A stretch of 64,000 bases of DNA from Squalus acanthias (taxonomy: Eukaryota): the NCBI GenBank assembly GCA_030390025.1, contig CM059432.1, forward strand, positions 18,602,001-18,666,000, in the 5' to 3' direction. Made by a program: the position numbers and the translations under genes. Below the pieces are notes generated by a model, which was not told where the DNA came from, made no database searches, and worked only from the letters and a program-made list of their open reading frames with translations. Within the stretch, counting starts at the first letter, position 1. Every line of letters starts with the position of its first letter. Shown in pieces: positions 10,990 through 50,802 of the stretch.

Positions 10990-11925
10990 TTCTCAGGAGA
11001 GAAAAAGATCTTGGTGTTAATTGTGCACCAATCACTGAAGGTTCATGACCTCTGTAGAGAAACTAATGTGGAGCTAAAGCTAACAAGGTATTGGGTTGTA
11101 TTAATAGAACCATTCAGTATAAATCAAAGGACACCATTTTGACACTGTACGGGTCGCTGGTCAGACCGCATCTGGACTACTGTGCCCAGATTTGTTACCC
11201 CCCACACGGTGGGTGGTATAATGGCCTTGGAAAAGGTCCAGAGGAGAGCTACAAAAATGATTCCGAGCTTAAAGAACCGCAGCTACTCAGATAGGCTCAA
11301 GAACCGTGGTCTATTCACTTTAGAGCAGCGTAGACTTAGAGGCTACCTGATAGAGGTCTATCAAATAATTAAAGGGATGGAGAGTGTCCCTGTTGATAGA
11401 TTATTCCAGTCTAATAGACTGGGGAGGACCAGGGGACATAAGTTTAAACTATGTAAGAGTAGGAATAGACTGGATGTTGGGCGGTTCTTCTCTTCCTAGA
11501 GAATAGTGAGCCTCTGGAATGCATTGCTGGCTGGTGCGCTGGGTGCTGGCTCTCTGCCCGCCTTCAAGAGGGAGCTGAACCGGTTCCTGACTGGGGCAGA
11601 GATCGCATCGTCTAGAAGGTCAGTGTCTTTATAGATAGCACTCGGTCCATGTGATCTCCTGGAATGGCTTTGATCGCCTGAGGGGGTCGGAGATGAATTT
11701 TACAGGGTATTTTTTTTCCCATATTGGCGCTGGGTAGTTTCCTGTTTTTTTTGCCTCTCCCAGGAGATTACATGGCTATGGTGGTGGGTGTGAAGGGGGC
11801 GGGGGGGCGGAGGTAGGGAAGGGATATTTAGTCATGATGGGCAAGCCATTGTGGTGTGAGGTAGGTTTGATGGACAAGCGGGTCTTTTCCTGCTCGTAAT
11901 TTTCATATTTTCATATGTTCGTATT
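10990..11925 (+). mobile_element. CR1 LINE 3' fragment
   Basis: LVRPHLDYCAQ, LEKVQRRATKMIP, RRLRGYLIEVY, RTRGH. Confidence 0.9.
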
Positions 11926-12059
11926 AAATCTCTGCTGAAGCACTCTCTCCTTATCCACGTCTCCTCGCTAAGATCCTCATAGGACCTCTGTTGCCTGGAT
12001 GGGTGGTAATATCAGTTGGGGTGCAACTTGCTTACATGCTGCCTCAATCTCCTCTCCTC

Positions 12060-17213: not shown

Positions 17214-17726
17214 GGCCGCGATCTTTATAGAGGAGGCGGGTTGAGGGCGAGCCCGCTGCTCAGCAGCTTTTGGACCCGCTCCCGGATGCCGCCTCCCAGC
17301 AGTTACTATTTTCGCTTGATTGGCCTCATTACGGCTGACGGCGGGTCCCTCCAGGCATTTGGTTGCAGAGCGTCAGATTCTCGCCTCTGATGACACGTTG
17401 TTTCAGGTAAAAATTTAAAGGGGCCATGTCCCCTTTGCAAAAGCATTAGGTTTTTCCTCTTAAAGGTACTGGCTGCTGTAGGAATGGCAGACCCAAAAAC
17501 TAAGGCTGCACCCAGGTTCAATGAGGGCTCCCTCCATGCTCTTGTGGAGGGAGTTAGAGGACGTCAGGAGGTCCTCTTCCCTGGAAACGGAAGGAGGAGG
17601 AGGCCTCCTCAGCAAACCAAGGCAGCTTGGCTGCAAATTGCTGAGGAGGTGAGTTCAAGGTCTCTGTGCAGACGCACATGGGTTCAGTGTCGAAAAAAGT
17701 TTCATGTTCTGCTAAGATCACCTAAA
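17214..17726 (+). mobile_element. Harbinger left end with Myb/SANT-like exon 1 (17484-17726)
   Basis: TIR-like GGCCGCGATCTTT inside the CR1; APRFNEGSLHALVEGVRGRQEVLFP...AWLQIAEEV...RTWVQCRKKF is an MSANTD/Myb_DNA-bind_5-type motif. Confidence 0.8.
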
Positions 17727-18822
17727 GTGTGGCTTCACGAAGAAGACGCAAAAAACCTCCCGGAAATAGTAGAGAACCAAGGATCTAGCGAGAATGAGGA
17801 ACTGAAAGAAATTAGTATTAGTAAAAAAATAGTACTGGAGAAATTAATGGAACTGAAAGCCGATAAATCCCCTGGACCTGATGGCTTACATCCTCGGGTT
17901 TTAAAAGAGGTGGCTATCGAGATATTGGATGTATTGGTTGACATTTTCCAAAATTCCATTCATTCTGGAACGGTTCCCATGGAATGGAAGGTAGCAAATG
18001 TAACCCCACTATTTAAGAAAGGAGGGAGAGAGAAAATGGGGAATGACAGATCAGTTAGCCTGACATCAGTAGTAGGAAAAATGCTAGAATCTATTATTAA
18101 GGACGTGGTAATAGGGCACTTAGGAAATAATAATAGGATTGGGCAGAGTCAACACGGATTTATGAAAGAGAAATCGTGTTTGACGAATCTGTTAGAGCTT
18201 TTTGAGGTTGTAACTAGCAGAATAGATAAAGAGGAACCAGTGGCTGTGGTGTATTTGGATTTTCAGAAGGCATTTGATAAGGTGCCACTCAAGAGGTTAT
18301 TATACAAATTTAGGGCTCATGGGACAGGGGGGTAATATACTAGCATAGATTGAGGATTGGTTAACGGATAGAAAACAGAGAGTAGGAATAAACGGGTCAT
18401 TTTCGGGTTGGCAGGCTGTAACTAGTGGGGTACCGCAAGGATCAGTGCTTGGGCCTCAGCTATTCACAATCTATATCAATGATTTGGATGAGGGGACCAA
18501 ATGTAATATATCCAAGTTTGCTAGGTGAGGATGTAAGTTGTGAGGAGGATGCAACGAGGCTTCAAGGGGATCTAGACAGGCTAAGTGAGTGGGCAAGAAC
18601 ATGGCAAATGGAATATAATGTGAAGTTATCCACTTTGGTAGGAAAATAAAAAAGCAGAATATTTTTTAAAGGGTGAGAGATTGGGAAATGTTGGTGTTCA
18701 GAGGGACCTGAGTGTCCTTGTACATGAATCACTGAAAGTTAATATGCAGATATAGCAAGCAATTAGGAAAGAAAATGGTATGTTGGCCTTTATTACAAGA
18801 GGATTTGAGTATAAGAGTAAAG

Positions 18823-27960: not shown

Positions 27961-29503
27961 GTGCCATGTGCCCTCAGCGCCACCTCACCGGGACAGTGAT
28001 CCTGGCTGATTTTTCATTCCCCTAACCTATGGTATGGAGAGCCATTGTAGCACCCTTAATGCCAGCCCGGATGGGGTCAGTTAACTTAGCACACACCGAG
28101 AACCAGGAGCCCCCCACCTGACTGGGAGCCTAGCTGACTTCCGGGCGGGGATGCTGTTGAAAAAAAAAGACCCAGGCTGTCAAAATTCCACAGCTTGCAG
28201 GGACCCGACCAGAACTGCTCCACCCTGCTTGGAAAAATCCGCCCCTGTCAATATAAGGGCCCATGTGACAGAATTAAACCTCTTGATTGGGCATTAATGT
28301 TTCTGTACTTCAAGTGGGATTATCTCAGTACAAATTAAGATGTGTAAAGTCATGATTTAGTCATCCTTAATTCAGAAGATTGGAGAGGATTTCCAAAAAA
28401 AGTGCTTAAATGGTTTCGAGAAAGGATAGAAGGTTAACAGAAGATGTAAGCAACTTTGGAAGCAGTCCGCTAAAAAGCACGGAGAGAAGTTGAATGATTT
28501 AGAAAGGTTAAGGGGGTAATTTTAATGCTGCGTGCTTCATATTGTATCATCAATTTGAATTTAACGGCTGTGGGCTGGGTTTCCCAGGGCTCGGGACACC
28601 CGGCAGCTGAAGGGAGGCAGGAGCTGCCAGATCCAGCAGTTAAGTATATTTTTCAGCACTGCTTGTGGGCTAGGATGAGTAGGGGTGCTTCCCCCGGCCC
28701 CTCAAGCAGGCAAACCTATGTGATCAGCCTCCCTCCCCACGATCTTCAGACCCCCGACCCCCGCCATCTCTTGGACTTCCTTCCCCATGATCTCTCCCTT
28801 CGCGATCCCTCCCTCCCTCTCCGCTGCTTCCCCCACCCCACCCCCCCCGCCCCCATGATCCCACCTCCACCTGGCGATTTCCCCAGTCTGGCCGGCTTCT
28901 GGCCAGGAGACGGAATTTAAAAATTTGAAATTCGGCGGGACGGTACCCCGAATGGGTGCTATTTTCCTTTTTACTTGTGCCCAGATCATCACCATCAGAT
29001 CTATCTAGGAACCTGAAGCATACCTTCGACATGTTTGAAGTGTAATCAGAGATGATTCTGGTGGATGAATGACCACATTTCAATGCCTTTCAGATGGAGT
29101 CCTGGGAAAGTACATTGATGTCATCAGCCAAGTCTGTAGAGAAAAAAGGGCTAGAAATTCATTATAGCCAAGAAATGGGCAGTGTTTAGACTAAAAATGG
29201 TTAATTAGCGGCAGTTGGAAATTGTCTAGGCTGCACGCCAAATTCGTGCTCACTCCTCATTAAAATGATTGCAGTCATGATTCTCATCTAAAAACCCAAG
29301 CTCATTGGCGTTACACTGAAAAGATGGACCAATATCGGGGGCAGTCTAAACGCATGTAGTGATTGCCACAGGCTTTTTTCACTACTTAAAGGGGAGGTTC
29401 ATTGATGCTGCAGCACCTCATTCTCAGCATTGTTGGATGTGCAGCTGCCTCACCCACCACAAGAAGAAGGACAAGGAGAAGGAGCACTTATTTACAAATC
29501 CTG

Positions 29504-29746
29504 ATGGCAGATTGCCGCTCCAGGGAGAGAGCCTGGAGGATTTCTGATGAAGCTTTCAAAGCATTGGTTTTAGCGATGGAGGGAAGGCGGGCAGTCCTGT
29601 ATCCGTCAACTGGCAGGAGGCCCTCGCCACAAGTCTGCCGGACTATGTGGAGGGAGGTGGCACACCACATCATGGGCAGCACTGTGGTCCCCAGGACCCA
29701 CACACAGTGCAGGAAGAAGTTTAACGAGCTCACACGGGTGGTCAGG
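29504..29746 (+). CDS. Harbinger Myb/SANT-like DNA-binding protein exon 1 (81 codons, open)
   Basis: RERAWRISDEAFKALV...RRAVLYP...MWREVA...RTHTQCRKKFNELTR followed by AGG|gtgagt. Confidence 0.75.
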
Positions 29747-30185
29747 GTGAGTGAAGGTTTCAACAAATGTTACATACCACCATCTCTACCACAAGCTTCA
29801 CACACTGCTCAATGCACCACATCCCAGCACTCACCCACCAACAATCTCTGCCTAGCAACACTCACACCCACATCTCACACCTTGCACAGAATGACAGCTA
29901 TTCAACTATGACAGGCACAACAGTCATTAGTTATTAGAATTCATGTGATATGTTTATACATATTAATTCTGTTTGGAATATTGTGTGGTCTCTCTCATTT
30001 CAGCTTTGTGCCCAGGGAGATGCTGTGATATGGCATGAGACAGGGATTGTATAATGGGGATGTGGTGAACTACGGGGATTTGGGGTTTCATTCGACACAA
30101 ATTGGAGTCTGATGAGCAGGTCACGGACAGTCGGTACGGAAGGCTTATTGTCTCACTGCCTCCGCCCTCCCTCCTGTTTCTCCCC

Positions 30186-32626
30186 ATCCTCGCCCTCATC
30201 CTCCTCCTCCTCATCCTCCACCTCCTCGTCCTCCTCCTCACCCTCCTCGCCCTCATCCTCCACCTCCTCATCCTACACCTCCTCGTCCTCCTCCTCCTCA
30301 TCCTCCATCCTCCTCGTCCTCCTCCTCCTCATCCTCCTCCTCCTCGTCCTCCTCCTCCTCGTCCTCCTCCTCCTCGCCTCCTCCTCCTCATCCTCCACCT
30401 CCTCGTCCTCCTCCTCCTCATCCTCCACCTCCTCGTCCTCCTCCTCATCCTCCTCGCCCTCATCCTCCACCTCCTCATCCTCCACCTCCTCGTCCTCCTC
30501 CTCCTCATCCTCCACCTCCTCGTCCTCCACCGCCTCATCCTCCTCCTCCTCGTCCTCCACCTCCTCGTCCTCCTCATCCTCCACCTCATCCTCGTCCTCA
30601 TCCTCCTCATCCTCCTCCTCCTCGTCCTCCTCCTCCTCGTCCTCCTCGTCCTCGTCCTCCACCTCCTCGTCCTCCTCGTCCTCCTCATCCTCCTCCTCCT
30701 CATCCTCCTCGTCCTCCTCCTCCTCATCCTCCTCGTCCTCCACCTCCTCATCCTCCTCGTCCTCCTCCTCCTCATCCTCCTCGTCCTCCTCCTCCTCATC
30801 CTCCACCTCCTCGTCCTCCTCCTCCTCATCCTCCACATCCTCCTCCTCCTCCTCCTCCTCCTCCTCATCCTCCACCTCCTCCTCCACCTCATCCTCCTCC
30901 TGCTCCTCATCCTCCTCGTCCTCCTCCTCCTCGTCCTCCTCCTCCTGCTCCTCATCCTCCTCATCCTCCTCCTCCTCCTCCTCATCCTCCTCATCCTCCT
31001 CCTCCTCGTCCTCCACCTCCTCCTCCTCCTCCTCATCCTCCACCTCCTCCTCCTCCTCATCCTCCACCTCCTCGTCCTCCTCCTCCTTGTCCTCCTCCTC
31101 CTCATCCTCCTCCTCCTCGTCCTCCTCCTCCTCGTCCTCCTCCTCCTCATCCTCCACCTCATCCTCCTCCTCCTCCTCGTCCTCCTCGTCCTCCTCCTCC
31201 TCATCCTCCTCATCCTCCTCCTCCTCATCCTCCACCTCCTCCTCCACCTCATCCTCCTCCTCCTCCTCCTCATCCTCCTCCTCCTCCTCCTCCTCATCCT
31301 CATCCTCCACCTCATCCTCCTCCTCCTCCTCCTCATCCTCCACCTCCTCCTCCACCTCATCCTCCTCCTCCTCGTCCTCCTCCTCCTCGTCCTCCACCTC
31401 ATTCTCCTCCTCCTCGTCCTCCTCATCCTCCTCCTCCTCGTCCTCCTCCTCCTCCTCATCCTCCTCCTCCTCGTCCTCCTCCTCCTCATCCTCCTCGTCC
31501 TCCTCCTCCTCCTCATCCTCCTCCTCCTCGTCCTCCTCCTCCTCCTCCTCATCCTCCTCCTCCTCATCCTCCTCCTCCTCCTCCTCCTCCTCCTCATCCT
31601 CCTCCTCCTCCTCCTCCTCCTCCTCGTCCTCCTCCTCCTCCTCTTCATCCTCCTCCTCATCCTCCTCATCCTCCTCCTCCTCGTCCTCCTCATCCTCCTC
31701 CTCCTCCTCCTCCTCGTCCTCCTCCTCATCCTCGTCCTCCTCATCCTCCTCATCCTCCTCGTCCTCATCCTCCTCATCCTCCTCCTCCTCGTCCTCATCC
31801 TCCTCCTCCTCATCCTCATCCTCCTCCTCCACCTCCTCCTCCTCCTCCTCCTCGTCCTCCTCCTCGTCCTCCTCCTTGTCCTCCTCCTCCTCCTCGTCCT
31901 CCTCCTCGTCCTCCTCCTCGTCCTCCTCCTCCTCCTCCTCATCCTCATCCTCCTCCTCCTCCTCCTCCTCCTCCTCGTCTTCCTCCTCCTCCTCGTCCTC
32001 CTCCTCCTCCTCCTCGTCCTCGTCCTCGTCCTCCACCTCCTCCTCCTCCTCCTCCTCCTCATCCTCCTCCTCCTCCTCATCCTCCTCGTCCTCCTCCTCC
32101 TCAACCTCCTCGTCCTCCACCTCCTCATCCTCCTCGTCCTCCTCCTCCTCATCCTCCTCGTCCTCCTCCTCCTCATCCTCCACCTCCTCGTCCTCCTCAT
32201 CCTCCTCATCCTCCTCCTCCTCCTCCTCATCCTCCACCTCCTCCTCCACCTCATCCTCCTCCTGCTCCTCATCCTCCTCGTCCTCCTCCTCCTCGTCCTC
32301 CTCCTCCTGCTCCTCATCCTCCTCATCCTCCTCCTCCTCCTCCTCCTCATCCTCCTCGTCCTCCTCCTCCTCGTCCTCCACTTCCTCCTCCTCCTCCTCC
32401 TCATCCTCCACCTCCTCCTCCTCCTCGCCCTCCACCTCCTCGTCCTCCTCCTGCTTGTCCTCCTCCTCCTCATCCTCCACCTCCTCGTCCTCCTCCTCCT
32501 CGTCCTCCTCCTCCTCGTCCTCCTCCTCCTCATCCTCCTCCTCCTCATCCTCCTCCTCCTCATCCTCCTCCTCCTCCTCGTCCTCCTCCTCCTCATCCTC
32601 CTCCTCCTCCTCCTCGTCCTCCTCGT
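30186..32626. repeat. Interrupted (TCC)n array, left block (TCA-rich variants)
   Basis: Directly visible; the minus strand reads as E/D/V codons. Confidence 0.99.
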
Positions 32627-35600
32627 CATAGACATAGACATAGAACAGTACAGCACAGTACAGGCCCTTCGGCCCTCGATGTTGTGCCGAGCATTGTCCG
32701 AGACCAAGATCAAGCTATCACACTCCCTATCACTCTGGTGTGCTCCATGTGCTTATCCAATAACCGCTTGAAAGTTCCTAAAGTGTCCGACTCCACTATC
32801 ACAGCAGGCAGTCCATTCCACACCCCAACCACTCTCTGAGTAAACAATCTACCTCGGACATCCCTTCTATATCTCCCCCCATGCACCTTATAGTTATGCC
32901 CCCTTGTAACAGCTGCCTCTACCCGAGGAAATAGTCTCTGAACATCCACTCTATCTATCCCCCTCATCATCTTATAAACCTCTATTAAGTCGCCTCTCAT
33001 CCTCCTCCGCTCTAAAGAGAAAAGCCCCAACTCCCTCAATCTTTCCTCATAAGACCTCCCCCACAAACCAGGCAGCATCCTGATAAATCTCCTTTGCACT
33101 CTTTCCAATGCTTCCACGTCCTTCCTATAGTGAGGTGACCAGAACTGCACACAATATTCCAAATGTGGTCTCACCAAGGTCCTGTACAGTTGCAGCATAA
33201 CCTCACGGTTCTTAAACTCAAACCCTCTGTTAATAAACGCCAACACACCATAGGCCTTCTTTACTGCTCTATCCACTTGAGTGGCAACCTTCAGAGATCT
33301 GTGGATATGAACCCCCAGATCCCTCTGCTCCTCCACGTTCCTCAGAACCCTGCCGTTGACCCTGTAATCCTTATTCAAATTTGCCCTACCAAAATGAATC
33401 ACCTCGCACTTATCAGGGTTAAATTCCATCTGCCATTTTTCGGCCCAGCTCTGCATCCTATCAATGTCTCTTTGCAGCCTACAACTGCCCTCCACCTCAT
33501 CCACTACTCCACCAATCTTGGTGTCATCAGCAAATTTACTGATCCACCCTTCAGTCCCCTCCTCCAAGTCATTGATAAAAATCACAAACAGCAGAGGACC
33601 CAGCACCGACCCCTGTGGCACACCGCTGGTAACTGGTCTCCAGTCCGAAAATGTTCCATCCACCACCACCCTCTGCCTTCTATGAGATAGCCAGTTACTT
33701 ATCCAATCGGCCAAATTTCCCTCTATCCCACAACTCCTTACTTTCTTCATGAGACGACCATGGGGAACCTTATCAAACGCCTTACTAAAATCCATGTATA
33801 CGACATCAACTGCTCTACACACTTAGTTACCTCCTCAAAGAATTCAATCAAATTTGTTAGGCAAGACTTACCCTTCACGAATCCGTGTTGACTATCCCTG
33901 ATTAAGTTGCCCCTTTCCAAATGGTCATAAATCCTATCCCTCAGGACCTTTTCCATTATCTTACCAACCACCGAAGTAAGACTAACCGGCCTATAATTAC
34001 CAGGGTCATTCCTATTTCCTTTCTTGAAGAGAGGAACAACATTCGCCACTCTCCAGTCCTCTGGCACCATCCCCGTGGACAGTGAGGACCCAAAGATCAA
34101 AGCCAGAGGCTCTGCAATCTCCTCCCTTGCCTCCCAAAGAATCCTAGGATATATCCCATCTGGCCCAGGGGACTTATCGACCCTCAGGTTCTTCAAAATT
34201 GCTAAAACATCTTCCCTCAGAACATCTACCACCTCCAGCCTATCCACCTTTATCACACTCTCATCCTCAAGAACATGGCCCCTCTCCTCGGTGAACACTG
34301 ACGAAAAGTATTCATTCATCACCTCTCCTATCTCTTCTGACTCCATGCACAAGTTCCCACTACTGTCCTTGACCGGCCCTACCCTCACCCTGGTCATTCT
34401 TTTATTTCTCACATAAGAGTAAAAAGCCTTGGGGTTTTTCTTGATCCGACCCGCCAAGGACTTCTCATGCCCCCTCCTAGCTCTCCTAAGCTCTTTTTTT
34501 AGCTCATTCCTTGCTACCTTGTACCCCTCAATCGACCCAAATGAACCTTGTTTTCTCATCCTTACATACGCTTCCTTTTTCCTCTTGACTAGACATTCAA
34601 CCTCTTTTGTGAACCATGGTTCTCTCACTCGGCCATTTCCTCCCTGCCTGACAGGGACATACCTATCAAGGACACGCAGTAATTGCTCCATGAAAAAGCT
34701 CCACTTTTCGTTTGTGCCTTTCCCTGATAGTTTCTGTTCCCATCTTATACTCCCTAATTCTTGCCTAATCGCATCATAATTACCCCTCCCCCAATTATAA
34801 ACCCTGCCCTGCCGTATGGCCCTATCCCTCTCCATTGCAATAGTGAAAGTTACCGAATTGTGGTCACTATCTCCAAAGTGCTCTCCCACATACAAATCAA
34901 ACATTTGGCCCGGTTCATTACCCAGTACCAAATCCAACGTGGCCCCACCTCTTGTCGGCCTATCCACATATTGTGTCAGGAAACCCTCCTGCACACACTG
35001 TGCAAAAACTATCCCATCCGAACTGTTTGACCTATAAAGGTTCCAATCAATATTTGGAAAGTTGAAGTCACCCATGACAACTACTCTGTGACCTCCACAC
35101 CTATTCATAATCTGCTTTGCAATTTCTTCCTCCACATCTTTATTACTATTTGGGGGCCTGTAGAAAACTCCTAACAACGTGACCGCTCCTTTCCTATTTT
35201 TAACTTCAGCCCATATTACCTCAGACGGCAGATCCCCCTCGAACTGCCTTTCTGCCGCTGTTAAACTATCCTTGATTAACAGTGCTACTCCTCCACCTTT
35301 CTTACCAACTTCCCTACTCTTACTGAAACATCTATACCCCGGAACTTCCAACAACCATTCCTGTCCCTGTTCTAACCATGTCTCCGTAATGGCCACCACA
35401 TCGTAGTCCCAAGTACCAATCCACGCTCCAAGTTCTCCTACCTTATTCCGGATGCTCCTTGCATTGAAGTAGACACACTTCAAGCCATCTTCCTGTCTGC
35501 CGGTACATTCCTGCGACCTTGATACCCTCCTCAGTACCTCCCTACACTCACCACTGGCTCCTGGACTACAGCCCTTTTTCCCATCCCCCTGACAAATTAG

Positions 35601-35703
35601 TTTAAACCCCCCCGAAGAGCCGTAGCAAATTTCTCTCCCAGGATATTGGTGCCCCTCTGGTTCAGGTGCAAACCATCCTGTTTGTACAGATCCCACCTTC
35701 CCC
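32627..35703 (-). mobile_element. Young CR1 LINE: ORF1 tail plus near-intact ORF2 (APE endonuclease + RT), one frameshift
   Basis: ORF1 end GRWDLYKQDGLHLN...GGLN*; ORF2 YFNARS, ITETW, GDFNFP, LDLVL, SDH, QHGF, YMDFSKAFD, KFADD; (tctatg)n tail at 32627-32645. Confidence 0.98.
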
Positions 35704-38287
35704 GTCCTCCTCCTTCTCGTCCTCCTCCTCCTCGTCCTCCTCCTCCTCCTCCTCCTCATCCTCCACCTCCTCCTCCACCTCATCCTCCTCCTCCTCCTCA
35801 TCCTCCTCCTGCTCCTCATCCTCCTCCTCCTCGTCCTCCTCCTCATCCTCCTCCTCCTCCTCCTCATCCTCCACCTCCTCCTCCACCTCATCCTCCTCCT
35901 CCTCCTCCTCGTCCTCCTCCTCCTCGTCCTCCACCTCATCCTCCTCCTCCTCCTCGTCCTCCTCATCCTCCTCCTCCTCCTCCTCCTCGTCCTCCTCCTC
36001 CTCCTCATCCTCCTCCTCCTCCTCCTCCTCATCCTCCTCCTCCTCGTCCTCCTCCTCCTCCTCGTCCTCCTCCTCCTCATCCTCCTCATCTTCCTCATCC
36101 TCCTCCTCCTCCTCATCTTCCTCCTCCTCATCCTCCTCCTCCTTATCCTCCTCATCCTCCTCCTCCTCCTCCTCCTCGTCCTCCTCCTCCTCCTCCTCAT
36201 CCTCCTCATCCTCCTCCTCCTCCTCATCTTCCTCCTCCTCATCCTCCTCCTCCTTATCCTCCTCATCCTCCTCCTCCTCCTCCTCCTCGTCCTCCTCCTC
36301 CTCCTCCTCATCCTCCTCGTCCTCCTCCTCCTCCTCGTCCTCCTCGTCCTCGTCCTCGTCCTCCTCCTCCTCATCCTCCTTCTCCTCGTCCTCCTCGTCC
36401 TCCTCGTCCTCCTCCTCCTCATCCTCCTCATCCTCCTCCTCCTCGTCCTCCTCGTCCTCATCCTCCTCCTCCTCCTCGTCCTCCTCCTCATCCTCCTCCT
36501 CCTCGTCCTCCTCCTCGTCCTCCTCCTCCTCGTCCTCCTCCTCCTCCTCCTCCTCCTCATCCTCCTCCTCCTCCTCCTCCTCCTCCTCATCCTCCTCCTC
36601 CTCCTCCTCCTCGTCCTCCTCCTCCTCGTCTTCCTCCTCCTCCTCGTCCTCCTCCTCCTCCTCCTCCTCCTCCTCCTCCTCCTCCTCGTCCTGCTCATCC
36701 TCCTCCTCCTCGTCCTCCTCCTCCTCCTCCTCCACCTCCTCCTCCTCGTCCTCCTCTTCCTCGTCCTCCTCCTCCTCGTCCTCCTCGTCCTCCTCCTCGT
36801 CCTCCTCCTCCTCGTCCTCGTCGTCCTCATCCTCCTCCTCCTCGTCCTCCTCCTCCTCATCCTCCTCGTCCTCCTCCTCCTCCTCCTCGTCCTCCTCCTC
36901 CTCGTCCTCCTCGTCCTCCTCCTCGTCCTCCTCCTCCTCGTCCTCGTCGTCCTCATCCTCCTCCTCCTCGTCCTCCTCCTCCTCCTCCTCCTCCTCGTCC
37001 TCCTCGTCCTCCTCCTCCTCGTCCTCCTCCTCCTCCTCCTCCACTTCCTCCTCTTCCTCCTCCTCCTCGTCCTCCTCCTCCTCCTCCTCTTCCTCCTCCT
37101 CCTCCTCCTCCTCGTCCTCCTCCTCCTGCTCATCCTCCTCCTCCTCCTCCTCCTCCTCCACCTCCTCGTCCTCCTCCTCCTCCTCCTCCACCTCCTCGTC
37201 CTCCACCTCCTCCTCCTCCTCGTCCTCCTTCTCGTCCACCTCGTCCTCCTCCTCCTCCTCGTCCTCCTCCTCCTCCTCGTCCTCCTCCACCTCCTCCTCC
37301 TCCACCTCCTCCACCTCCTCGTCCTCCTCCTCGTCCTCGTCCTCCTCCTCCACCACCTCCTCGTCCTCGTCCTCCTCCTCGTCCTCATCCTCCTCGTCCT
37401 CCACCTCCTCGTCCTCCACCTCCTCGTCCTCCTCCTCCTCGTCCTCCTCCTCCTCGTCCTCCACCTCCTCGTCCTCCACCTGCTCGTCCTCCTCCTCCTC
37501 GTCCTCCTCCTCCTCGTCCTCCTCCTCCTCGTCCTCCACCTCCTCGTCCTCCACCTCCTCGTCCTCCTCCTCCTCGTCCTCCACCTCCTCGTCCTCCTCC
37601 TCCTCGTCCTCCTCCTCCTCGTCCTCGTCCTCCTCCTCCTCGTCATCCACCTCCTCGTCCTCCTCCTCCTCGTCCTCCTCCTCCTCGTCCTCCACCTCCT
37701 CGTCCTCCTCCTCCTCGTCCTCCTCCTCCTCGTCCTCCTCCTCCTCGTCCTCCACCTACTCGACCTCCACCTCCTCCTCCTCCTCCTCCTCCACCTCCTC
37801 CTCCTCCACCTCCTCCTCCACCTCCTCCTCCACCTCCTCGTCCTCATCCTCCTCGTCCTCCACCTCCTTGTCCTCCTCCTCCTCTTCCTCCACCTCATCC
37901 TCATCCACTTCCTCGTCCTCCTCCTCCTCGTCCTCCTCCTCCTCGTCCTCCACCTCCTCGTCCTCCTCCTCCTCGTCCTCCTCCTCCTCCTGCTCCTCAT
38001 CCTCCACCTCCTCCTCCACCTCATCCTCCTCCTCCTCCTCATCCTCCTCCTCCTCGTCCTCCTCCTCATCCTCCTCCTCCTCCTCCTCATCCTCCACCTC
38101 CTCCTCCACCTCATCCTCCTCCTCCTCCTCCTACTCCTCCTCGTCCTCCACCTCATCCTCCTCCTCCTCCTCGTCCTCCTCATCCTCCTCCTCCTCGTCC
38201 TCCTCCTCCTCCTCATCCTCCTCCTCCTCCTCCTCCTCCTCCTCGTCCTCCTCCTCCTCCTCGTCCTCCTCCTCCTCATCCTCCTCA

Positions 38288-38320
<33 letters not shown>

Positions 38321-40039
38321 TCCTCCTCATCCTCCTCATCCTCCTCCTCCTCGTCCTCCTCCTCCTCCTCGTCCTCCTCGTCCTCGTCCTCGTCCTCCTC
38401 CTCCTCAACCTCCTTCTCCTCGTCCTCCTCGTCCTCCTCGTCCTCCTCCTCCTCATCCTCCTCCTCCTCGTCCTCATCCTCCTCCTCCTCCTCGTCCTCC
38501 TCCTCATCCTCCTCCTCCTCGTCCTCCTCCTCGTCCTCCTCCTCCTCGTCCTCCTCCTCCTCCTCCTCCTCCTTATCCTCCTCCTCCTCCTCCTCCTCAT
38601 CCTCCTTCTCCTCCTCCTCCTCGTCCTCCTCGTCCTCCTCCTCGTCTTCCTCCTCCTCCTCGTCCTCCTCCTCCTCCTCCTCCTCCTCCTCCTCCTCCTC
38701 CTCCTCCTCCTCCTCCTCCTCGTCCTGCTCGTCCTCCTCCTCCTCGTCCTCCTCCTCCTCCTCCACCTCCTCCTCCTCGTCCTCCTCTTCCTCGTCCTCC
38801 TCCTCCTCGTCCTCCTCGTCCTCCTCCTCGTCCTCCTCCTCCTCTTCCTCCTCCTCCTCCTCCTCGTCCTCCTCCTCCTGCTCATCCTCCTCCTCCTCCT
38901 CCTCCTCCTCCACCTCCTCGTCCTCCTCCTCCTCCTCCTCCACCTCCTCGTCCTCCACCTCCTCCTCCTCCTCGTCCTCCTTCTCGTCCACCTCGTCCTC
39001 CTCCTCCTCCTCGTCCTCCTCCTCCTCCTCGTCCTCCTCCACCTCCTCCTCCTCCACCTCCTCCACCTCCTCGTCCTCCTCCTCGTCCTCGTCCTCCTCC
39101 TCCACCACCTCCTCGTCCTCGTCCTCCTCCTCGTCCTCATCCTCCTCGTCCTCCACCTCCTCGTCCTCCACCTCCTCGTCCTCCTCCTCCTCGTCCTCCT
39201 CCTCCTCGTCCTCCACCTCCTCGTCCTCCACCTGCTCGTCCTCCTCCTCCTCGTCCTCCTCCTCCTCGTCCTCCTCCTCCTCGTCCTCCACCTCCTCGTC
39301 CTCCACCTCCTCGTCCTCCTCCTCCTCGTCCTCCACCTCCTCGTCCTCCTCCTCCTCGTCCTCCTCCTCCTCGTCCTCGTCCTCCTCCTCCTCGTCATCC
39401 ACCTCCTCGTCCTCCTCCTCCTCGTCCTCCTCCTCCTCGTCCTCCACCTCCTCGTCCTCCTCCTCCTCGTCCTCCTCCTCCTCGTCCTCCTCCTCCTCGT
39501 CCTCCACCTACTCGACCTCCACCTCCTCCTCCTCCTCCTCCTCCACCTCCTCCTCCTCCACCTCCTCCTCCACCTCCTCCTCCACCTCCTCGTCCTCATC
39601 CTCCTCGTCCTCCACCTCCTTGTCCTCCTCCTCCTCTTCCTCCACCTCATCCTCATCCACTTCCTCGTCCTCCTCCTCCTCGTCCTCCTCCTCCTCGTCC
39701 TCCACCTCCTCGTCCTCCTCCTCCTCGTCCTCCTCCTCCTCCTGCTCCTCATCCTCCACCTCCTCCTCCACCTCATCCTCCTCCTCCTCCTCATCCTCCT
39801 CCTCCTCGTCCTCCTCCTCATCCTCCTCCTCCTCCTCCTCATCCTCCACCTCCTCCTCCACCTCATCCTCCTCCTCCTCCTCCTACTCCTCCTCGTCCTC
39901 CACCTCATCCTCCTCCTCCTCCTCGTCCTCCTCATCCTCCTCCTCCTCGTCCTCCTCCTCCTCCTCATCCTCCTCCTCCTCCTCCTCCTCCTCCTCGTCC
40001 TCCTCCTCCTCCTCGTCCTCCTCCTCCTCATCCTCCTCA

Positions 40040-40072
<33 letters not shown>

Positions 40073-43000
40073 TCCTCCTCATCCTCCTCATCCTCCTCCT
40101 CCTCGTCCTCCTCCTCCTCCTCGTCCTCCTCGTCCTCGTCCTCGTCCTCCTCCTCCTCAACCTCCTTCTCCTCGTCCTCCTCGTCCTCCTCGTCCTCCTC
40201 CTCCTCATCCTCCTCCTCCTCGTCCTCATCCTCCTCCTCCTCCTCGTCCTCCTCCTCATCCTCCTCCTCCTCGTCCTCCTCCTCGTCCTCCTCCTCCTCG
40301 TCCTCCTCCTCCTCCTCCTCCTCCTTATCCTCCTCCTCCTCCTCCTCCTCATCCTCCTTCTCCTCCTCCTCCTCGTCCTCCTCGTCCTCCTCCTCATCTT
40401 CCTCCTCCTCCTCGTCCTCCTCCTCCTCCTCCTCCTCCTCCTCCTCCTCCTCCTCCTCCTCGTCCTGCTCGTCCTCCTCCTCCTCGTCCTCCTCCTCCTC
40501 CTCCACCTCCTCCTCCTCGTCCTCCTCTTCCTCGTCCTCCTCCTCCTCGTCCTCCTCGTCCTCCTCCTCGTCCTCCTCCTCCTCGTCCTCGTCGTCCTCA
40601 TCCTCCTCCTCCTCGTCCTCCTCCTCCTCATCCTCCTCGTCCTCCTCCTCCTCCTCCTCGTCCTCCTCCTCCTCGTCCTCCTCGTCCTCCTCCTCGTCCT
40701 CCTCCTCCTCGTCCTCGTCGTCCTCATCCTCCTCCTCCTCGTCCTCCTCATCCTCCTCCTCCTCGTCCTCCTCGTCCTCCTCCTCCTCATCCTCCTCCTC
40801 CTCCTCCTCCACTTCCTCCTCTTCCTCCTCCTCCTCGTCCTCCTCCTCCTCCTCCTCTTCCTCCTCCTCCTCCTCCTCCTCGTCCTCCTCCTCCTCCTCA
40901 TCCTCCTCCTCCTCCTCCTCCTCCTCCACCTCCTCGTCCTCCTCCTCCTCCTCCTCCACCTACTCGTCCTCCACCTCCTCCTCCTCCTCGTCCTCCTTCT
41001 CGTCCACCTCCTCCTCCTCCTCCTCCTCGTCCTCCTCCCCCTCCTCGTCCTCCTCCACCTCCTCCTCCTCCACCTCCTCCACCTCCTCGTCCTCCTCCTC
41101 GTCCTCGTCCTCCTCCTCCACCACCTCCTCGTCCTCGTCCTCGTCCTCCTCCTCGTCCTCATCCTCCTCGTCCTCCACCTCCTTGTCCTCCACCTCCTCG
41201 TCCACCACCTCCTCGTCCTCCACCTCCTCGTCCTCCTCCTCCTCGTCCTCCTCCTCCTCGTCCTCCACCTCCTCGTCCTCCACCTGCTCGTCCTCCTCCT
41301 CCTCGTCCTCCTCCTCCTCGTCCTCCTCCTCCTCGTCCTCCACCTCCTCGTCCTCCTCCTCCTCGTCCTCCACCTCCTCGTCCTCCTCCTCCTCGTCCTC
41401 CTCCTCCTCGTCCTCCTCCTCCTCCTCGTCATCCTCCTCCTCGTCCTCCTCCTCCTCGTCCTCCTCCTCCTCGTCCTCCACCTCCTCGTCCTCCTCCTCC
41501 TCGTCCTCCTCCTCCTCGTCCTCCTCCTCCTCGTCCTCCACCTCCTCGACCTCCACCTCCTCCTCCTCCTCCTCCTCCACCTCCTCCTCCTCCACCTCCT
41601 CCTCCACCTCCTCCTCCACCTCCTCGTCCTCATCCTCCTCGTCCTCCACCTCCTCGTCCTCCTCCTCCTCCTCCTCCACCTCACCTCATCCACTTCCTCG
41701 TCCTCCTCCTCCTCGTCCTCCTCGTCCTCGTCCTCCACCTCCTCGTCCTCCACCTCCTCGTCCTCCTCCTCCTCGTCCTCCTCCTCCTCGTCCTCCTCGT
41801 CCTCCTCCTCCTCCTCCTCCTCCTCGTCCTCCTCGTCCTCCTCCTCGTCCTCCTCCTCCTCGTCCTCGTCGTCCTCATCCTCCTCCTCCTCGTCCTCCTC
41901 ATCCTCCTCCTCCTCGTCCTCCTCGTCCTCCTCCTCCTCGTCCTCCTCCTCCTCCTCCTCCACTTCCTCTCTTCGTCCTCCTCCTCGTCCTCCTCCTCCT
42001 CCTCCTCTTCCTCCTCCTCCTCCTCCTCCTCGTCCTCCTCCTCCTCCTCATCCTCCTCCTCCTCCTCCTCCTCCTCCACCTCCTTGTCCTCCTCCTCCTC
42101 CTCCTCACCTCCTCGTCCTCCACCTCCTCCTCCTCCTCGTCCTCCTTCTCGTCCACCTCCTCCTCCTCCTCCTCCTCGTCCTCCTCCCCCTCCTCGTCCT
42201 CCTCCACCTCCTCCTCCTCCACCTCCTCCACCTCCTCATCCTCCTCCTCGTCCTCGTCCTCCTCCTCCACCACCTCCTCGTCCTCGTCCTCCTCCCCGTC
42301 CTCATCCTCCTCGTCCTCCACCTCCTCGTCCTCCACCTCCTCGTCCTCCACCTCCTCGTCCTCCACCTCCTCGTCCTCCTCCTCCTCGTCCTCCTCCTCC
42401 TCGTCCTCCACCTCCTCGTCCTCCACCTGCTCGTCCTCGTCCTCCTCGTCCTCCTCCTCCTCGTCCTCCTCCTCCTCGTCCTCACCTCCTCGTCCTCCTC
42501 CTCCTCGTCCTCCACCTCCTCGTCCTCCTCCTCCTCGTCCTCCTCCTCCTCGTCATCCTCCTCCTCGTCCTCCTCCTCCTCGTCCTCCTCCTCCTCGTCC
42601 TCCACCTCCTCGTCCTCCACCTCCTCGTCCTCCTCCTCCTCGTCCTCCTCCTCCTCGTCCTCCACCTCCTCGACCTCCACCTCCTCCTCCTCCTCCTCCT
42701 CCACCTCCTCCTCCTCCACCTCCTCCTCCACCTCCTCCTCCACCTCCTCGTCCTCATCCTCCTCGTCCTCCACCTCCTCGTCCTCCTCCTCCTCCTCCTC
42801 CACCTCACCTCATCCACTTCCTCGTCCTCCTCCTCCTCGTCCTCCTCCTCCTCGTCCTCCACCTCCTCGTCCTCCACCTCCTCGTCCTCCTCCTCCTCGT
42901 CCTCCTCCTCCTCGTCCTCCTCGTCCTCCTCCTCCTCCTCCTCGTCCTCCTCCTCCTCGTCCTCCTCCTCCTCGTCCTCCTCCTCCTCGTCCTCCACCTC

Positions 43001-46000
43001 CTCGTCCTCCTCCTCCTCGTCCTCCTCCTTCTCCTCCTCCTCGTCCTCCTCCTCCTCCTCGTCCTCCTCCTCCTTGTCCTCCTCCTCCTCCTCCTCCTCC
43101 TCCACCTCCTCGTCCTCCTCATCCTCGTCCTCCTCATCCTCGTCCTCCTCCTCCTCGTCCTCCTCCTCCTCGTCCTCCACCTCCTCGTCCTCCTCCTCCT
43201 CGTCCTCCACCTCCTCGTCCTCCTCCTCGTCGTCCTCCTCCTCCTCGTCCTCCTCCTCCTCGTCCTCCTCCTCCTCGTCCCCCTCGTCCTCCTCCTCCTC
43301 GTCCTCCTCGTCCTCCTCCTCCTCGTCCTCCTCCTCCTCGTCCTCCACCTCCTCGTCCTCCTCCTCCTCGTCCTCCTCCTCCTCGTCCTCCTCCTCCTCG
43401 TCCTCCACCTCCACGTCCTCCTCCTCCTCGTCCTCCTCCTCCTCGTCCTCCTCCTCCTCGTCCTCCTCCTCCTCGTCCTCCTGCTCCTCGTCCTCCACCT
43501 CCTCGTCCTCCTCCTCCTCGTCCTCCTCCTCCTCGTCCTCCTCCTCCTCGTCCTCCATTTCCTCGTCCTCCTCCTCCTCGTCCTCCTCCTCCTCGTCCTC
43601 CTCCTCCTCGTCCTCCTCCTCCACCTCCTCGTCCTCCTCATCCTCGTCCTCCTCTTCCTCGTCCTCCTCCTCCTCGTCCTCCACCTCCTTGTCCTCCTCC
43701 TCCTCGCCCTCCACCTCCTCGTCCTCCTCCTCCTCGTCCTCCTCCTCCTCGTCCTCCTCCTCCTCGTCCTCCTCCTCCTCGTCCTCCACCTCCACGTCCT
43801 CCTCCTCCTCGTCCTCCTCCTCCTCGTCCTCCTCCTCCTCGTCCTCCTGCTCCTCGTCCTCCACCTCCTCGTCCTCCTCCTCCTCGTCCTCCTCCTCCTC
43901 GTCCTCCTCCTCCTCATCCTCCTCCTCCTCGTCCTCCATTTCCTCGTCCTCCTCCTCCTCCTCCTCCACCTACTCGTCCTCCTCCTCCTCCTCCTCCACC
44001 TACTCGTCCTCCACCTCCTCCTCCTCCTCGTCCTCCTTCTCGTCCACCTCCTCCTCCTCCTCCTCCTCGTCCTCCTCCCCCTCCTCGTCCTCCTCCACCT
44101 CCTCCTCCTCCACCTCCTCCACCTCCTCGTCCTCCTCCTCGTCCTCGTCCTCCTCCTCCACCACCTCCTCGTCCTCGTCCTCGTCCTCCTCCTCGTCCTC
44201 ATCCTCCTCGTCCTCCACCTCCTTGTCCTCCACCTCCTCGTCCACCACCTCCTCGTCCTCCACCTCCTCGTCCTCCTCCTCCTCGTCCTCCTCCTCCTCG
44301 TCCTCCACCTCCTCGTCCTCCACCTGCTCGTCCTCCTCCTCCTCGTCCTCCTCCTCCTCGTCCTCCTCCTCCTCGTCCTCCACCTCCTCGTCCTCCTCCT
44401 CCTCGTCCTCCACCTCCTCGTCCTCCTCCTCCTCGTCCTCCTCCTCCTCGTCCTCCTCCTCCTCCTCGTCATCCTCCTCCTCGTCCTCCTCCTCCTCGTC
44501 CTCCACCTCCTCGTCCTCCTCCTCCTCGTCCTCCTCCTCCTCGTCCTCCTCCTCCTCGTCCTCCACCTCCTCGACCTCCACCTCCTCCTCCTCCTCCTCC
44601 TCCACCTCCTCCTCCTCCACCTCCTCCTCCACCTCCTCCTCCACCTCCTCGTCCTCATCCTCCTCGTCCTCCACCTCCTCGTCCTCCTCCTCCTCCTCCT
44701 CCACCTCACCTCATCCACTTCCTCGTCCTCCTCCTCCTCGTCCTCCTCGTCCTCGTCCTCCACCTCCTCGTCCTCCACCTCCTCGTCCTCCTCCTCCTCG
44801 TCCTCCTCCTCCTCGTCCTCCTCGTCCTCCTCCTCCTCCTCCTCCTCCTCGTCCTCCTCGTCCTCCTCCTCGTCCTCCTCCTCCTCGTCCTCGTCGTCCT
44901 CATCCTCCTCCTCCTCGTCCTCCTCATCCTCCTCCTCCTCGTCCTCCTCGTCCTCCTCCTCCTCGTCCTCCTCCTCCTCCTCCTCCACTTCCTCTCTTCG
45001 TCCTCCTCCTCGTCCTCCTCCTCCTCCTCCTCTTCCTCCTCCTCCTCCTCCTCCTCGTCCTCCTCCTCCTCCTCATCCTCCTCCTCCTCCTCCTCCTCCT
45101 CCACCTCCTTGTCCTCCTCCTCCTCCTCCTCCACCTCCTCGTCCTCCACCTCCTCCTCCTCCTCGTTCTCCTTCTCGTCCACCTCCTCCTCCTCCTCCTC
45201 CTCGTCCTCCTCCCCCTCCTCGTCCTCCTCCACCTCCTCCTCCTCCACCTCCTCCACCTCCTCGTCCTCCTCCTCGTCCTCGTCCTCCTCCTCCACCACC
45301 TCCTCGTCCTCGTCCTCCTCCCCGTCCTCATCCTCCTCGTCCTCCACCTCCTCGTCCTCCACCTCCTCGTCCTCCACCTCCTCGTCCTCCACCTCCTCGT
45401 CCTCCTCCTCCTCGTCCTCCTCCTCCTCGTCCTCCACCTCCTCGTCCTCCACCTGCTCGTCCTCGTCCTCCTCGTCCTCCTCCTCCTCGTCCTCCTCCTC
45501 CTCGTCCTCCACCTCCTCGTCCTCCTCCTCCTCGTCCTCCACCTCCTCGTCCTCCTCCTCCTCGTCCTCCTCCTCCTCGTCATCCTCCTCCTCGTCCTCC
45601 TCCTCCTCGTCCTCCTCCTCCTCGTCCTCCACCTCCTCGTCCTCCTCCTCCTCGTCCTCCTCCTCCTCGTCCTCCTCCTCCTCGTCCTCCACCTCCTCGA
45701 CCTCCACCTCCTCCTCCTCCTCCTCCTCCACCTCCTCCTCCTCCACCTCCTCCTCCACCTCCTCCTCCACCTCCTCGTCCTCATCCTCCTCGTCCTCCAC
45801 CTCCTCGTCCTCCTCCTCCTCCTCCTCCACCTCACCTCATCCACTTCCTCGTCCTCCTCCTCCTCGTCCTCCTCCTCCTCGTCCTCCACCTCCTCGTCCT
45901 CCACCTCCTCGTCCTCCTCCTCCTCGTCCTCCTCCTCCTCGTCCTCCTCGTCCTCCTCCTCCTCCTCCTCGTCCTCCTCCTCCTCGTCCTCCTCCTCCTC

Positions 46001-47443
46001 GTCCTCCTCCTCCTCGTCCTCCACCTCCTCGTCCTCCTCCTCCTCGTCCTCCTCCTTCTCCTCCTCCTCGTTCTCCTCCTCCTCCTCGTCCTCCTCCTCC
46101 TCGTCCTCCTCCTCCTCCTCCTCCTCCTCCACCTCCTCGTCCTCCTCATCCTCGTCCTCCTCATCCTCGTCCTCCTCCTCCTCGTCCTCCTCCTCCTCGT
46201 CCTCCACCTCCTCGTCCTCCTCCTCCTCGTCCTCCACCTCCTCGTCCTCCTCCTCGTCGTCCTCCTCCTCCTCGTCCTCCTCCTCCTCGTCCTCCTCCTC
46301 CTCGTCCCCTCGTCCTCCTCCTCCTCGTCCTCCTCGTCCTCCTCCTCCTCGTCCTCCTCCTCCTCGTCCTCCACCTCCTCGTCCTCCTCCTCCTCGTCCT
46401 CCTCCTCCTCGTCCTCCTCCTCCTCGTCCTCCACCTCCACGTCCTCCTCCTCCTCGTCCTCCTCCTCCTCGTCCTCCTCCTCCTCGTCCTCCTCCTCCTC
46501 GTCCTCCTGCTCCTCGTCCTCCACCTCCTCGTCCTCCTCCTCCTCGTCCTCCTCCTCCTCGTCCTCCTCCTCCTCGTCCTCCTCCTCCTCGTCCTCCTCG
46601 TCCTCCTCCTCCTCCTCCTCGTCCTCCTCCTCCTCGTCCTCCTCCTCCTCGTCCTCCTCCTCCTCGTCCTCCACCTCCTCGTCCTCCTCCTCCTCGTCCT
46701 CCTCCTTCTCCTCCTCCTCGTTCTCCTCCTCCTCCTCGTCCTCCTCCTCCTCGTCCTCCTCCTCCTCCTCCTCCTCCTCCACCTCCTCGTCCTCCTCATC
46801 CTCGTCCTCCTCATCCTCGTCCTCCTCCTCCTCGTCCTCCTCCTCCTCGTCCTCCACCTCCTCGTCCTCCTCCTCCTCGTCCTCCTCCTCCTCGTCCTCC
46901 ATTTCCTCGTCCTCCTCCTCCTCGTCCTCCTCCTCCTCGTCCTCCTCCTCCTCGTCCTCCTCCTCCACCTCCTCGTCCTCCTCATCCTCGTCCTCCTCTT
47001 CCTCGTCCTCCTCCTCCTCGTCCTCCACCTCCTTGTCCTCCTCCTCCTCGCCCTCCACCTCCTCGTCCTCCTCCTCCTCGTCCTCCTCCTCCTCGTCCTC
47101 CTCCTCCTCGTCCTCCTCCTCCTCGTCCTCCTCCTCCTCGTCCTCCACCTCCACGTCCTCCTCCTCCTCGTCCTCCTCCTCCTCGTCCTCCTCCTCCTCG
47201 TCCTCCTGCTCCTCGTCCTCCACCTCCTCGTCCTCCTCCTCCTCGTCCTCCTCCTCCTCGTCCTCCTCCTCCTCATCCTCCTCCTCCTCGTCCTCCATTT
47301 CCTCGTCCTCCTCCTCCTCGTCCTCCTCCTCCTCGTCCTCCTCCTCGTCCTCCTCCTCCTCGTCCTCCTCCTCCACCTCCTCGGCCTCCTCCTCCTCCTC
47401 GGCCTCCTCCTCCTCCTCGTCCTCCTCTGCCTCGTCGTCCTCC
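35704..47443. repeat. Interrupted (TCC)n array, right block with higher-order duplications (TCG-rich)
   Basis: Directly visible; rare variants recur at fixed offsets of 1752 bp and ~3.03 kb. Confidence 0.99.
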
Positions 47444-48189
47444 TGAGGTAATCCCGCAATCCCACAGACCCCATGACTGTGAGGAAGTGTTGTGAGCAGA
47501 AAACTTTAACAAATAATGAGTGTCTTCTGCACTTGAATCAACACTCCCTGTCACCAAAAAAACTTGAAATAACTAAGGAAAGCCGTTACAGTTGCAGGAA
47601 GTAGCAAACAGCCACTAAAACTGCAGAACCATGTTAGGTGCAGCTGATTGGGGCTGGTGCCTTTAAATACCACTGCTGCAGCCTGCTTCCTGCTGGTAGA
47701 CGACAGTTCACCCTGTTGTTGTTCTGCGCTGCCGTTAAGGTAAGTGGCTATAACGAAGTTAGGAGATTGAACGGCCAGTGAGCATTGCACACTCACTGAC
47801 ATCATGATCTCCATGATGGCAAGGTCCCTGGTTATTGAGTTTAGTGGCAGCGCTACCGGCAACACCAATATGGCGTGCGGCACTGGAACTGGCATCAGCT
47901 GTCATTAGAGCTGTCAACAGCGTTTTAGTGCCATCTCGTGGTGCTAACGTGTGGCGCAAACCATACAAATTTCTCCCCCTTTATCTCCAAGGACAGGCAT
48001 CCACAGACATGCTCTCAGAATTCAAGTGCTTGCACTGTTGAGTTCCTTAAAATAAAGGCACTGTAGCAGTTCCCAGTGAAGTGAGCATTCACTTGAATAA
48101 TGGTGCTCTGCTCGTTACAAACAATTGAGAGTTGAGAGTTTTATTTTTTCCTGTTGACATATCCATTGATGAAGGTGCTCTTTGGACCA

Positions 48190-50552: not shown

Positions 50553-50802
50553 ATGTTTGGCTTTGTTATAGATGTCCTCAGTGTCAACCCAGAAAGACCC
50601 CATGATATAGAAGTTACGGGCAATAGTGACTTGAACAGCCATCGGCAGAGTAGAATCTCTTGTGGAGGTGGGCTACAGGTATGCTGGCATAGCTTTGTGA
50701 TAGCTTCCTTTGTCAAGCGAAACCTCAGCAGGCACTACTCCTCTTTCAAATACAGGTCAGAGCATCTGTGCCTGCATATGGTGGATATTGGCAGGCAGGT
50801 AC

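Follow-up and report, generated by a model that had tools for sequence, protein, structure and literature searches.

Derivation of a 14-kb GAG/GAC tandem array in Squalus acanthias from the acidic linker of a Harbinger nuclease gene

The window is a stretch of 64,000 nucleotides (nt) from Squalus acanthias (G000:C8:18,602,001-18,666,000; 3.7-Gb genome). It carries a GAG/GAC array of about 14.2 kb, with approximately 4,730 triplets and a 15-nt period, within a non-autonomous Harbinger derivative of the 1.65-kb type, designated D1. That the array represents the acidic C-terminal linker encoded by a Harbinger nuclease gene, surviving in a copy without the catalytic core, is close to certain. Both array ends align to the linker of a nuclease-bearing parent, by which the origin is shown. 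Growth of the tract very probably took place in situ, long after insertion, by slippage and then by unequal exchange. It yields no protein, and no function is evident for it.

Origin from a nuclease gene

Parent copies were searched for with a 19-letter start-codon motif (187 matches, 100 listed). Ten of the 100 listed matches continue into MGAVLAVDLALQDL or a close variant, which is the nuclease N-terminus, and not into the tract; all ten were retrieved. Three of them, L096, L097 and L098, are complete elements of 2.6 kb in which a nuclease gene lies between the same arms (5' 81-83%, 3' 90-91% identity). The inner ~390 bp of the window 5' arm is 84-87% identical to core-bearing L093 and L096-L098. 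The parent consensus, from 10 close core-bearing copies picked from 30 by 3'-arm identity, is an open 388-aa DDE nuclease with the C-terminal end HNLAIMRAQPLPAGIAGPPQEEDEAEEDEDEEEEEQEGGRRQRDNRPSGRAVHDRLIRLRFT; the D, D and E motifs were recognised by eye. Its C-terminus consists of HNLAIMRAQPLPAGIAGPPQ, a Glu/Asp tract, EQEGGRRQRDNRPSGRAVHDRLIRLRFT and the stop, with about 20 Glu/Asp codons in the linker. A natural open copy, L241, reads through the whole tail and contains the PF13359 domain (E=4.7e-32, 111 bits), absent from the window copy. Its best relatives in databases come from chondrichthyans and bear the name 'putative nuclease HARBI1' in their sources, at up to 77% identity. The complete elements, L241, the consensus and these homologues place the derivative under a PIF/Harbinger element encoding a DDE nuclease.

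At its entry the array is identical to the parent consensus at 56/61 nt (92%), from the GIAG codons into the tract, and at its exit at 139/160 nt (87%) over 30041-30200. The D1 junction joins nt 11 of the nuclease open reading frame (ORF) to nt 1,018. The core deletion postulated in the initial annotation is thus real and measures 1,006 nt against the parent. It shifts the frame, so that from its own ATG the D1 tract reads Arg, not Glu. Entry as GVCGIAGLPQEDDEAEE and exit as EDGEKQEGGRRQ, a stop and DNKPSVPTVRDLLIRLQF read as claimed earlier; the preceding 'GVC', taken as part of the same frame, is not nuclease tail and comes from the 11 nt that open the ORF (ATG 47474), read in another frame.

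Acidic tails are common in related nucleases. Among 120 listed homologues, 81 with the HN motif in the second half were scored; 64/81 have an acidic tail (6 or more D/E in 10 residues beyond the HN motif), the largest with 32 D/E. Of the layout given earlier for HARBI1-type nucleases, a short acidic tract and then an R..LI...F helix, the strict helix pattern occurs in only 14/81, though similar helices are visible by eye. Homologue P0008 has a tail nearly identical to the window's nuclease end.

The two flanks of the array are adjacent in a real non-autonomous family. A 5'-arm search gave 3,482 first-look candidates, of which 40 were scored and 30 fetched, including the window. All other 29 fetched copies run from the 5' arm through a short acidic tract to the window's 3' arm, as elements of ~1.6-1.7 kb, which upholds the adjacency whose absence the initial annotation had named as refuting.

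Description of the element

Features in and around the element (window coordinates, strand, basis) are as follows. TIR, terminal inverted repeat; LINE, long interspersed nuclear element; TRF, Tandem Repeats Finder.

28991..29144, minus: left part of the target site, a Harbinger nuclease relic, collinear with 47981-48161
29148..29159, plus: left TIR, Myb end of the Harbinger derivative; 10/12 bases equal to the right TIR; family 3' ends map here
29504..29746, plus: Myb/SANT exon 1, open, 81 codons, then a GT donor (PF13873)
30090..30165, minus: nuclease last codons (GGRRQ..DN.PS...VRD.LIRL.F), broken by TGA (parent consensus; same tail in homologue P0008)
30166..32624, minus: array block B (819 triplets), in which GAT units abound (TRF and triplet count)
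32625..35703, minus: young 5'-truncated LINE inside the array, 3,079 bp, with endonuclease, reverse transcriptase (RT) and a short-repeat 3' tail
35704..47445, minus: array block A, 3,908 triplets, 15-nt units DEEEE and DEEVE in nested duplications (TRF, lag scan)
37094..40461, no strand: youngest duplication, lag 1,752 bp, 99.94% over 1,616 bp (ungapped lag scan)
47446..47463, minus: GIAGLP remnant of the nuclease linker, directly upstream of the acidic tract; GIAGPP in the parent (parent alignment)
47464..47474, minus: opening 11 nt of the nuclease ORF, from the ATG at 47474 up to the deletion junction 47463/47464 (parent comparison)
47475..47967, minus: 5' arm, lying upstream of the nuclease start codon; identity to the derivative consensus 91.9%
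47968..47979, minus: right TIR, 12 bp, imperfect match to the left TIR
47981..48161, minus: right part of the target site, an older decayed Harbinger nuclease relic, collinear with 28991-29144 once the element is removed

Minus-strand order inside the TIRs: 5' arm of ~500 bp, ATG 47474, GIAGLP, block A, LINE, block B, nuclease last codons. The plus-strand Myb/SANT exon shares the element with these nuclease remnants and the array. TRF finds two blocks of period 15, at 30187-32624 (score 3292) and 35699-47444 (score 16019), well outside anything that chance would give. The triplet total is 819 + 3,908 = 4,727, in line with the ~4,700 triplets in ~14 kb given earlier; GAG accounts for 2,836/3,908 in block A. 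The longest uninterrupted GAG run is 19 triplets. In block A the match fraction is 0.884 at lag 15 versus ~0.82 at other multiples of 3. Internal frameshifts (9 in block A, 2 in block B) and TAG stops (7 and 1) show that the array is not the single in-frame tract it was taken for. Nor is it continuous: the two flanking blocks are real and are split by the LINE, which went unmentioned earlier. This LINE, presumably CR1-like, matches Exo_endo_phos (2.4e-21) and RVT_1 (8.1e-24) in Pfam; its identity to nine further copies is 98.7-99.5%. Among Asp codons, GAT drops from a share of ~0.55 (30-36 kb) to one of ~0.08 (41-47 kb) with no matching rise in CA-type decay, a polarity of unit use along the array.

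The TIR-like ends reported earlier are present at 29148 and 47979 as 12-bp imperfect inverted repeats. TIRs are a PIF/Harbinger trait; these match at 10/12 positions in their cores and are shorter than the usual 25-50 bp (PMC9179366). The left edge (29147/29148) is confirmed by 18-35 different loose ends per run in contigs of four sequencing runs from four organisms; the D1 family is present in all four. A contig of run X3 spans 28803-29171 with 1 difference and has only 24 letters inside the element (31 required to count as bridging); runs X6, X9 and X13 give no cover over 28940-29131. The open Myb/SANT exon was also correctly called, and lies just above the PF13873 cut-off (21.8 bits, E=1.8e-4, cut-off 21.7). 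The second ORF typical of PIF/Harbinger is represented by this exon only. Beyond it the rest of the gene is missing: 7 codons separate an AG acceptor at 30003-30004 from a stop. Parent copies, which have the 3' arm in common, also carry a truncated Myb gene.

The element landed inside an older, decayed Harbinger nuclease gene. Its joined halves match at E=2.3e-10 in tblastn, versus 9.5e-8 and 2.5e-4 separately. With the element removed, the two flanks form collinear stretches of a single relic; this indicates one insertion with no rearrangement between the arms, and rules out a chimera of two insertions. At family level, a 3-bp target site duplication (TSD) is exact in 8/20 scorable copies versus 1.3 expected, and 0/5,000 permutations reach 8 (22 copies tried; L002-L029, L231-L234). 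This is fewer exact TSDs than 4-6% divergence predicts. Flanking triplets are reverse-complementary in three copies (L009, L019, window).

Tract length in the family

D1 copies were collected through flank sequence only. The first set comprised 155 loci, less 1 duplicate, 6 without a right anchor and 4 with tract insertions, leaving 144 clean copies. Plotted across these, as the initial annotation had proposed, tracts are usually short (median 87.5 bp, about 88; quartiles 66-138), with 13 above 200 bp, 5 above 400 bp and one of 4,116 bp; the long upper tail of D1 reaches 540 bp, 4.1 kb and, in the window, 14.2 kb. A 3'-anchor motif gave 390 matches, 100 listed and 60 fetched: 11 D1 (35-274 bp), 35 core-bearing (27-101 bp), 11 of a second derivative, D2 (36-93 bp), and 3 unclassed. 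Core-bearing copies total 65, these 35 and a first 30 (maximum 114 bp). The window's own copy was left out of the counts; L061-L090 were excluded as length controls, their query having contained the tract. Other insertions are carried in the tract or at its edge by 4/154 short copies (L007, L028, L109, L213) and, as the LINE, by the giant array.

Measured in this way, the proto-repeat was planted by D1 at 155 loci on at least 20 contigs. Only 1/155 D1 copies not selected for an array exceeds 1 kb. With the window included, kb-scale arrays number 2/156; their units differ and they have no higher-order repeat in common. The second array (C1:176,082,796-176,086,912; L151:797-4912) is 4.1 kb long, with DEAEE/DEEKE units and its own 585- and 690-bp duplications. 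An ungapped lag scan found no high-identity diagonal between it and block A. Given its other units and the lack of a common diagonal, it is a separate expansion of the same seed. By hand count, the start-codon motif caught 12 of ~27 D1 copies in the 3'-anchor list; at this catch rate D1 may have near 400 copies, and kb-scale arrays would number roughly 2-4 per genome. The description of the family as a dispersed seed of giant satellites is thus borne out by a second independent expansion, with the reservation that it seeds them rarely, by estimate a handful per genome.

Loss of the catalytic core could itself trigger growth, by putting the tract out of frame or by placing it ~30 bp from the nuclease start between converging transcription units. 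The long tail is confined to D1: 14/155 copies (144 + 11) exceed 200 bp versus 0/65 core-bearing copies (maximum 114 bp; Fisher p=0.012), and medians are 87.5 and 58.5 bp (Mann-Whitney p=1e-4). However, D2 is also core-deleted and 11/11 of its tracts are 36-93 bp, although so small a sample could still miss a 9% tail (p=0.6). The majority of core-bearing copies, moreover, have stops and frameshifts, being already dead genes, and are likewise free of coding constraint. Such a trigger is less likely than not, D2 being core-less yet short. The runaway tendency likely came from the founder's longer tract more than from core loss.

Growth of the array

The proposed course of growth begins with a 2.6-kb parent carrying a 388-codon DDE nuclease, in which the 1,006-nt deletion joined the start codon to the linker out of frame. 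The 1.65-kb product spread to many sites. Dispersed copies probably began from a founder tract of ~90 bp with 15-nt D-E-E-E-E / D-E-A-E-E units, to which slippage may have added further 15-nt units. Once the array exceeded a few hundred bases, unequal exchange between its misaligned parts would have become the main route, duplicating 0.65-3 kb per event and carrying rare frameshifts and stops along in the duplicated segments. The window tract likely expanded ~150-fold after its copy inserted. The LINE would have entered the array very recently.

The seed already has the 15-nt structure (QEDDEAEEDEEEEDEEEE). Tract lengths are multiples of 3 in 99/144 copies, and the commonest class modulo 15 holds 40; short copies that differ mostly by whole codons would fit the prediction of slippage. 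Block A contains nested duplications at lags of 650 (98.1%), 1,124-1,129 (98.6-99.1%), 3,025-3,040 (98.5-99.6%) and 1,752 (99.94%). These duplications (96-99.9% identity) score 218-1603 versus 52-57 in two 15-nt-block shuffles. They were detected by ungapped lag scan; gapped self-BLAST was uninformative (~87% at every lag). One frameshift context recurs at 45835, 44709, 42808 and 41684, and another at 44996 and 41971; recurring contexts are copies of single events, and are read as unequal exchange. Block B shows no large recent duplication in the lag scan. Together with the near-identity of the LINE to its other copies, this indicates an array of at least several kb when the LINE arrived. Neither strand folds better than shuffles (z-scores 0.31 and -0.15), by which hairpin-driven expansion of the CAG/CTG type is ruled out.

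The arms are 91.9% identical to the derivative consensus and have lost 28/58 consensus CpGs (15 to CA). In the array, 9/551 and 3/71 comparable sites are CA. With arm CpGs decayed and array CpGs nearly intact, the insertion probably predates the array sequence by a long time, provided that the array is methylated.

Several points weigh against growth in place from the linker. Low CpG decay in the array could also mean no methylation or constant turnover, and not solely a late start. Tract length does not correlate with copy divergence (Spearman 0.02, p=0.79, n=139), so there was no steady, clock-like growth. No ancestral short allele of the window locus was seen. Of the first 30 core-bearing controls, about 20 are members of sister subfamilies (75-82% over the 3' arm). 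The outer 5' arm of D1 is only 77-83% like the sampled parents, which puts the exact donor outside the sample. The window copy has AAA on the left and TTT on the right, with no matching 3-bp TSD, as in the 12/20 relatives that likewise fail. Array length rests on the assembly, with no spanning reads, and the 1,752-bp duplication, which differs at 1/1,616 bases, is the single part that could be an assembly duplication.

On the strength of the missing spanning reads and the near-perfect duplication, much of the length could be an artefact, a false duplication in a low-complexity stretch. Most duplications, however, are 96-99.6% identical and nested; no match as near-perfect as the 1,752-bp one occurs in block B or at the junction with block A, the GAT share varies along the array, and a LINE lies inside it. 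Dropping the suspect unit leaves ~12.4 kb. An artefact on this scale is improbable. Rather less probable still is an array that arrived ready-made, whether by transposition of a long-tract element, by recombination of two copies via their tracts, or by gene conversion from an outside GAG satellite. The missing TSD of the window copy and the different GAT/GAC content of the array ends would agree with such an arrival, but the flanks are collinear parts of one relic, both arms are at the same 91.9% from consensus, array CpGs are far less decayed than arm CpGs, and no long diagonal is held in common with the 4.1-kb array. Maintenance by selection as functional chromatin, for example as a local centromere-like or heterochromatin seed, would accord with the higher-order structure and recent turnover. 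It is the least credible of the alternatives: the array is only 14 kb and tolerates a fresh LINE, and expanded copies each show units of their own. No host-gene domain was found by Pfam scan in 35 window ORFs of at least 110 aa, in which short exons would be missed.

Comparison with related systems

Transposons giving rise to tandem repeats are well established (PMC9659126). The present case belongs to a known kind, transposase-derived tandem repeats such as those of the CACTA element Jozin. In Chenopodium the satellite CficCl-61-40 derives from the tnp2 domain of the CACTA-like Jozin, and Atenspm arrays in Arabidopsis are cited in the same source (PMC7320549). There, as here, part of the sequence coding for a DNA transposon's transposase gave rise to tandem arrays in deletion derivatives, repeatedly and at separate loci. 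In Jozin/CficCl, however, a ~40-bp piece of a conserved domain became the monomer of the genome's major satellite, whereas here the seed is a low-complexity acidic linker, units of 3/15 nt vary by locus and arrays seldom reach giant size; the superfamily (Harbinger) and the host (a cartilaginous fish) also differ. The unit of the present array has its transposase-coding origin in a deletion derivative, but no common monomer forms an abundant satellite family at many loci, with only two kb-scale arrays in 156 copies. The array works like transposase-derived satellites and is not filed as a satellite family.

Within the superfamily, MtPH-A6-4 elements of Medicago truncatula carry 60-bp variable-number tandem repeats (PMC2213677), and there too variable arrays of deletion derivatives can fill most of the space between TIRs. 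Those repeats are subterminal, with 2-35 copies and ~2 kb at most, and the cited passages state no coding origin; here ~950 15-nt units come from a nuclease coding tail and show kb-scale higher-order duplication. Repeats borne by MITEs (transposable elements of the miniature inverted-repeat type) and similar elements include (GTCY)n in Lepidoptera, Xstir and miDNA4 in Xenopus and Helitron/DINE central repeats (PMC9659126). Likewise, a non-autonomous DNA element scatters a repeat seed that expands at some loci, but these are MITE or central non-coding repeats, and none described in the cited passages is a transposase poly-Glu linker.

Microsatellites are also seeded by tails of LINEs and short interspersed nuclear elements (SINEs), in snakes (PMC6050309) and as human L1/Alu proto-microsatellites (PMC3812793). 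The likeness lies in a mobile family that puts one proto-repeat into place at many loci, with copies then lengthening or shortening independently. Those seeds are 3' tails or short internal retrotransposon runs, mostly staying short; the seed here is not a 3' tail but an internal coding tract of a cut-and-paste TIR element, and reaches 4-14 kb. The expanded RFC1 repeat, (AAGGG)250-2000, is likewise purine-rich on one strand and of kb scale, with no hairpin required (PMC10563062), but such expansions affect single human loci with pure motifs, unlike the array here with its short pure GAG runs. No paper on a Harbinger acidic tail giving arrays was found in titles and abstract openings, with few subscription journals covered and Repbase and Dfam outside the scope.

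Significance

The birth of higher-order arrays is usually deduced from end products. Here one genome holds the seed, the parent, 200-540-bp intermediates, two independent giant outcomes and matched controls, namely core-bearing copies and two other deletion types. As the tract likely grew after landing, the hundreds of copies form a natural experiment on the birth of satellite DNA. Threshold length, unit purity, CpG content and transcription become testable as causes, with the locus held random. The source of the tandem DNA, the poly-Glu linker of a Harbinger nuclease, was not found described and is present in 64/81 scorable homologues. For annotation, such arrays hold open acidic frames of 500-2,700 codons that gene finders could call proteins. 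Genome-wide weight is small, a few arrays.

A bolder view, held only tentatively, is that D1 is a genome-wide satellite nursery, with copies of similar age staged from microsatellite through minisatellite to higher-order array and core deletion actively driving growth. If so, the deletion would set the tract beside the putative nuclease promoter and facing the putative Myb promoter. On this view, acidic tails being general in these nucleases, most long GAG arrays of sharks and rays would be former transposase tails.

Other derivatives and Harbinger sequences

In D2 (L271, L272, L277, L278, L284, L290, L293, L297, L298, L310, L330) the AGG repeats of the N-terminal Arg run have been joined to the GAG repeats of the C-terminal Glu run, with tracts of 36-93 bp. 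The same purine repeat in two frames likely served as deletion homology. Recombination of this AGG/GAG type fits D2, and is ruled out as the origin of the window derivative by the junction at nt 11. In the third derivative, D3, near-identical RRQ-coding stretches of 14 nt, one at either end of the nuclease, bound a deletion that has taken out both core and acidic tract. It occurs in 10/100 of the 3'-anchor matches listed (e.g. G000:C2:184932557, C3:95345311). Among the matches listed, two nuclease 3'-end matches at G000:C1:173957146-173957412 face each other 57 bp apart as a head-to-head inverted pair.

Further Harbinger pieces in the window lie at 17394-18335, 10876-12011 and 50553-50669, and comprise weak nuclease fragments and a Myb exon that continues into the RT frame of a LINE; they lie among many LINE RT fragments. 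The PF13359 search led to a young family, unrelated to the element and without a DNA match to it, that served only as an outside query. This family (L031-L060) has many intact nuclease frames of 384-392 codons. Its partner ORF contains a tandem repeat of ~18 codons (..INESLEGMLQKPDVGVQLSK..) that varies between copies, a second coding repeat of this sort.

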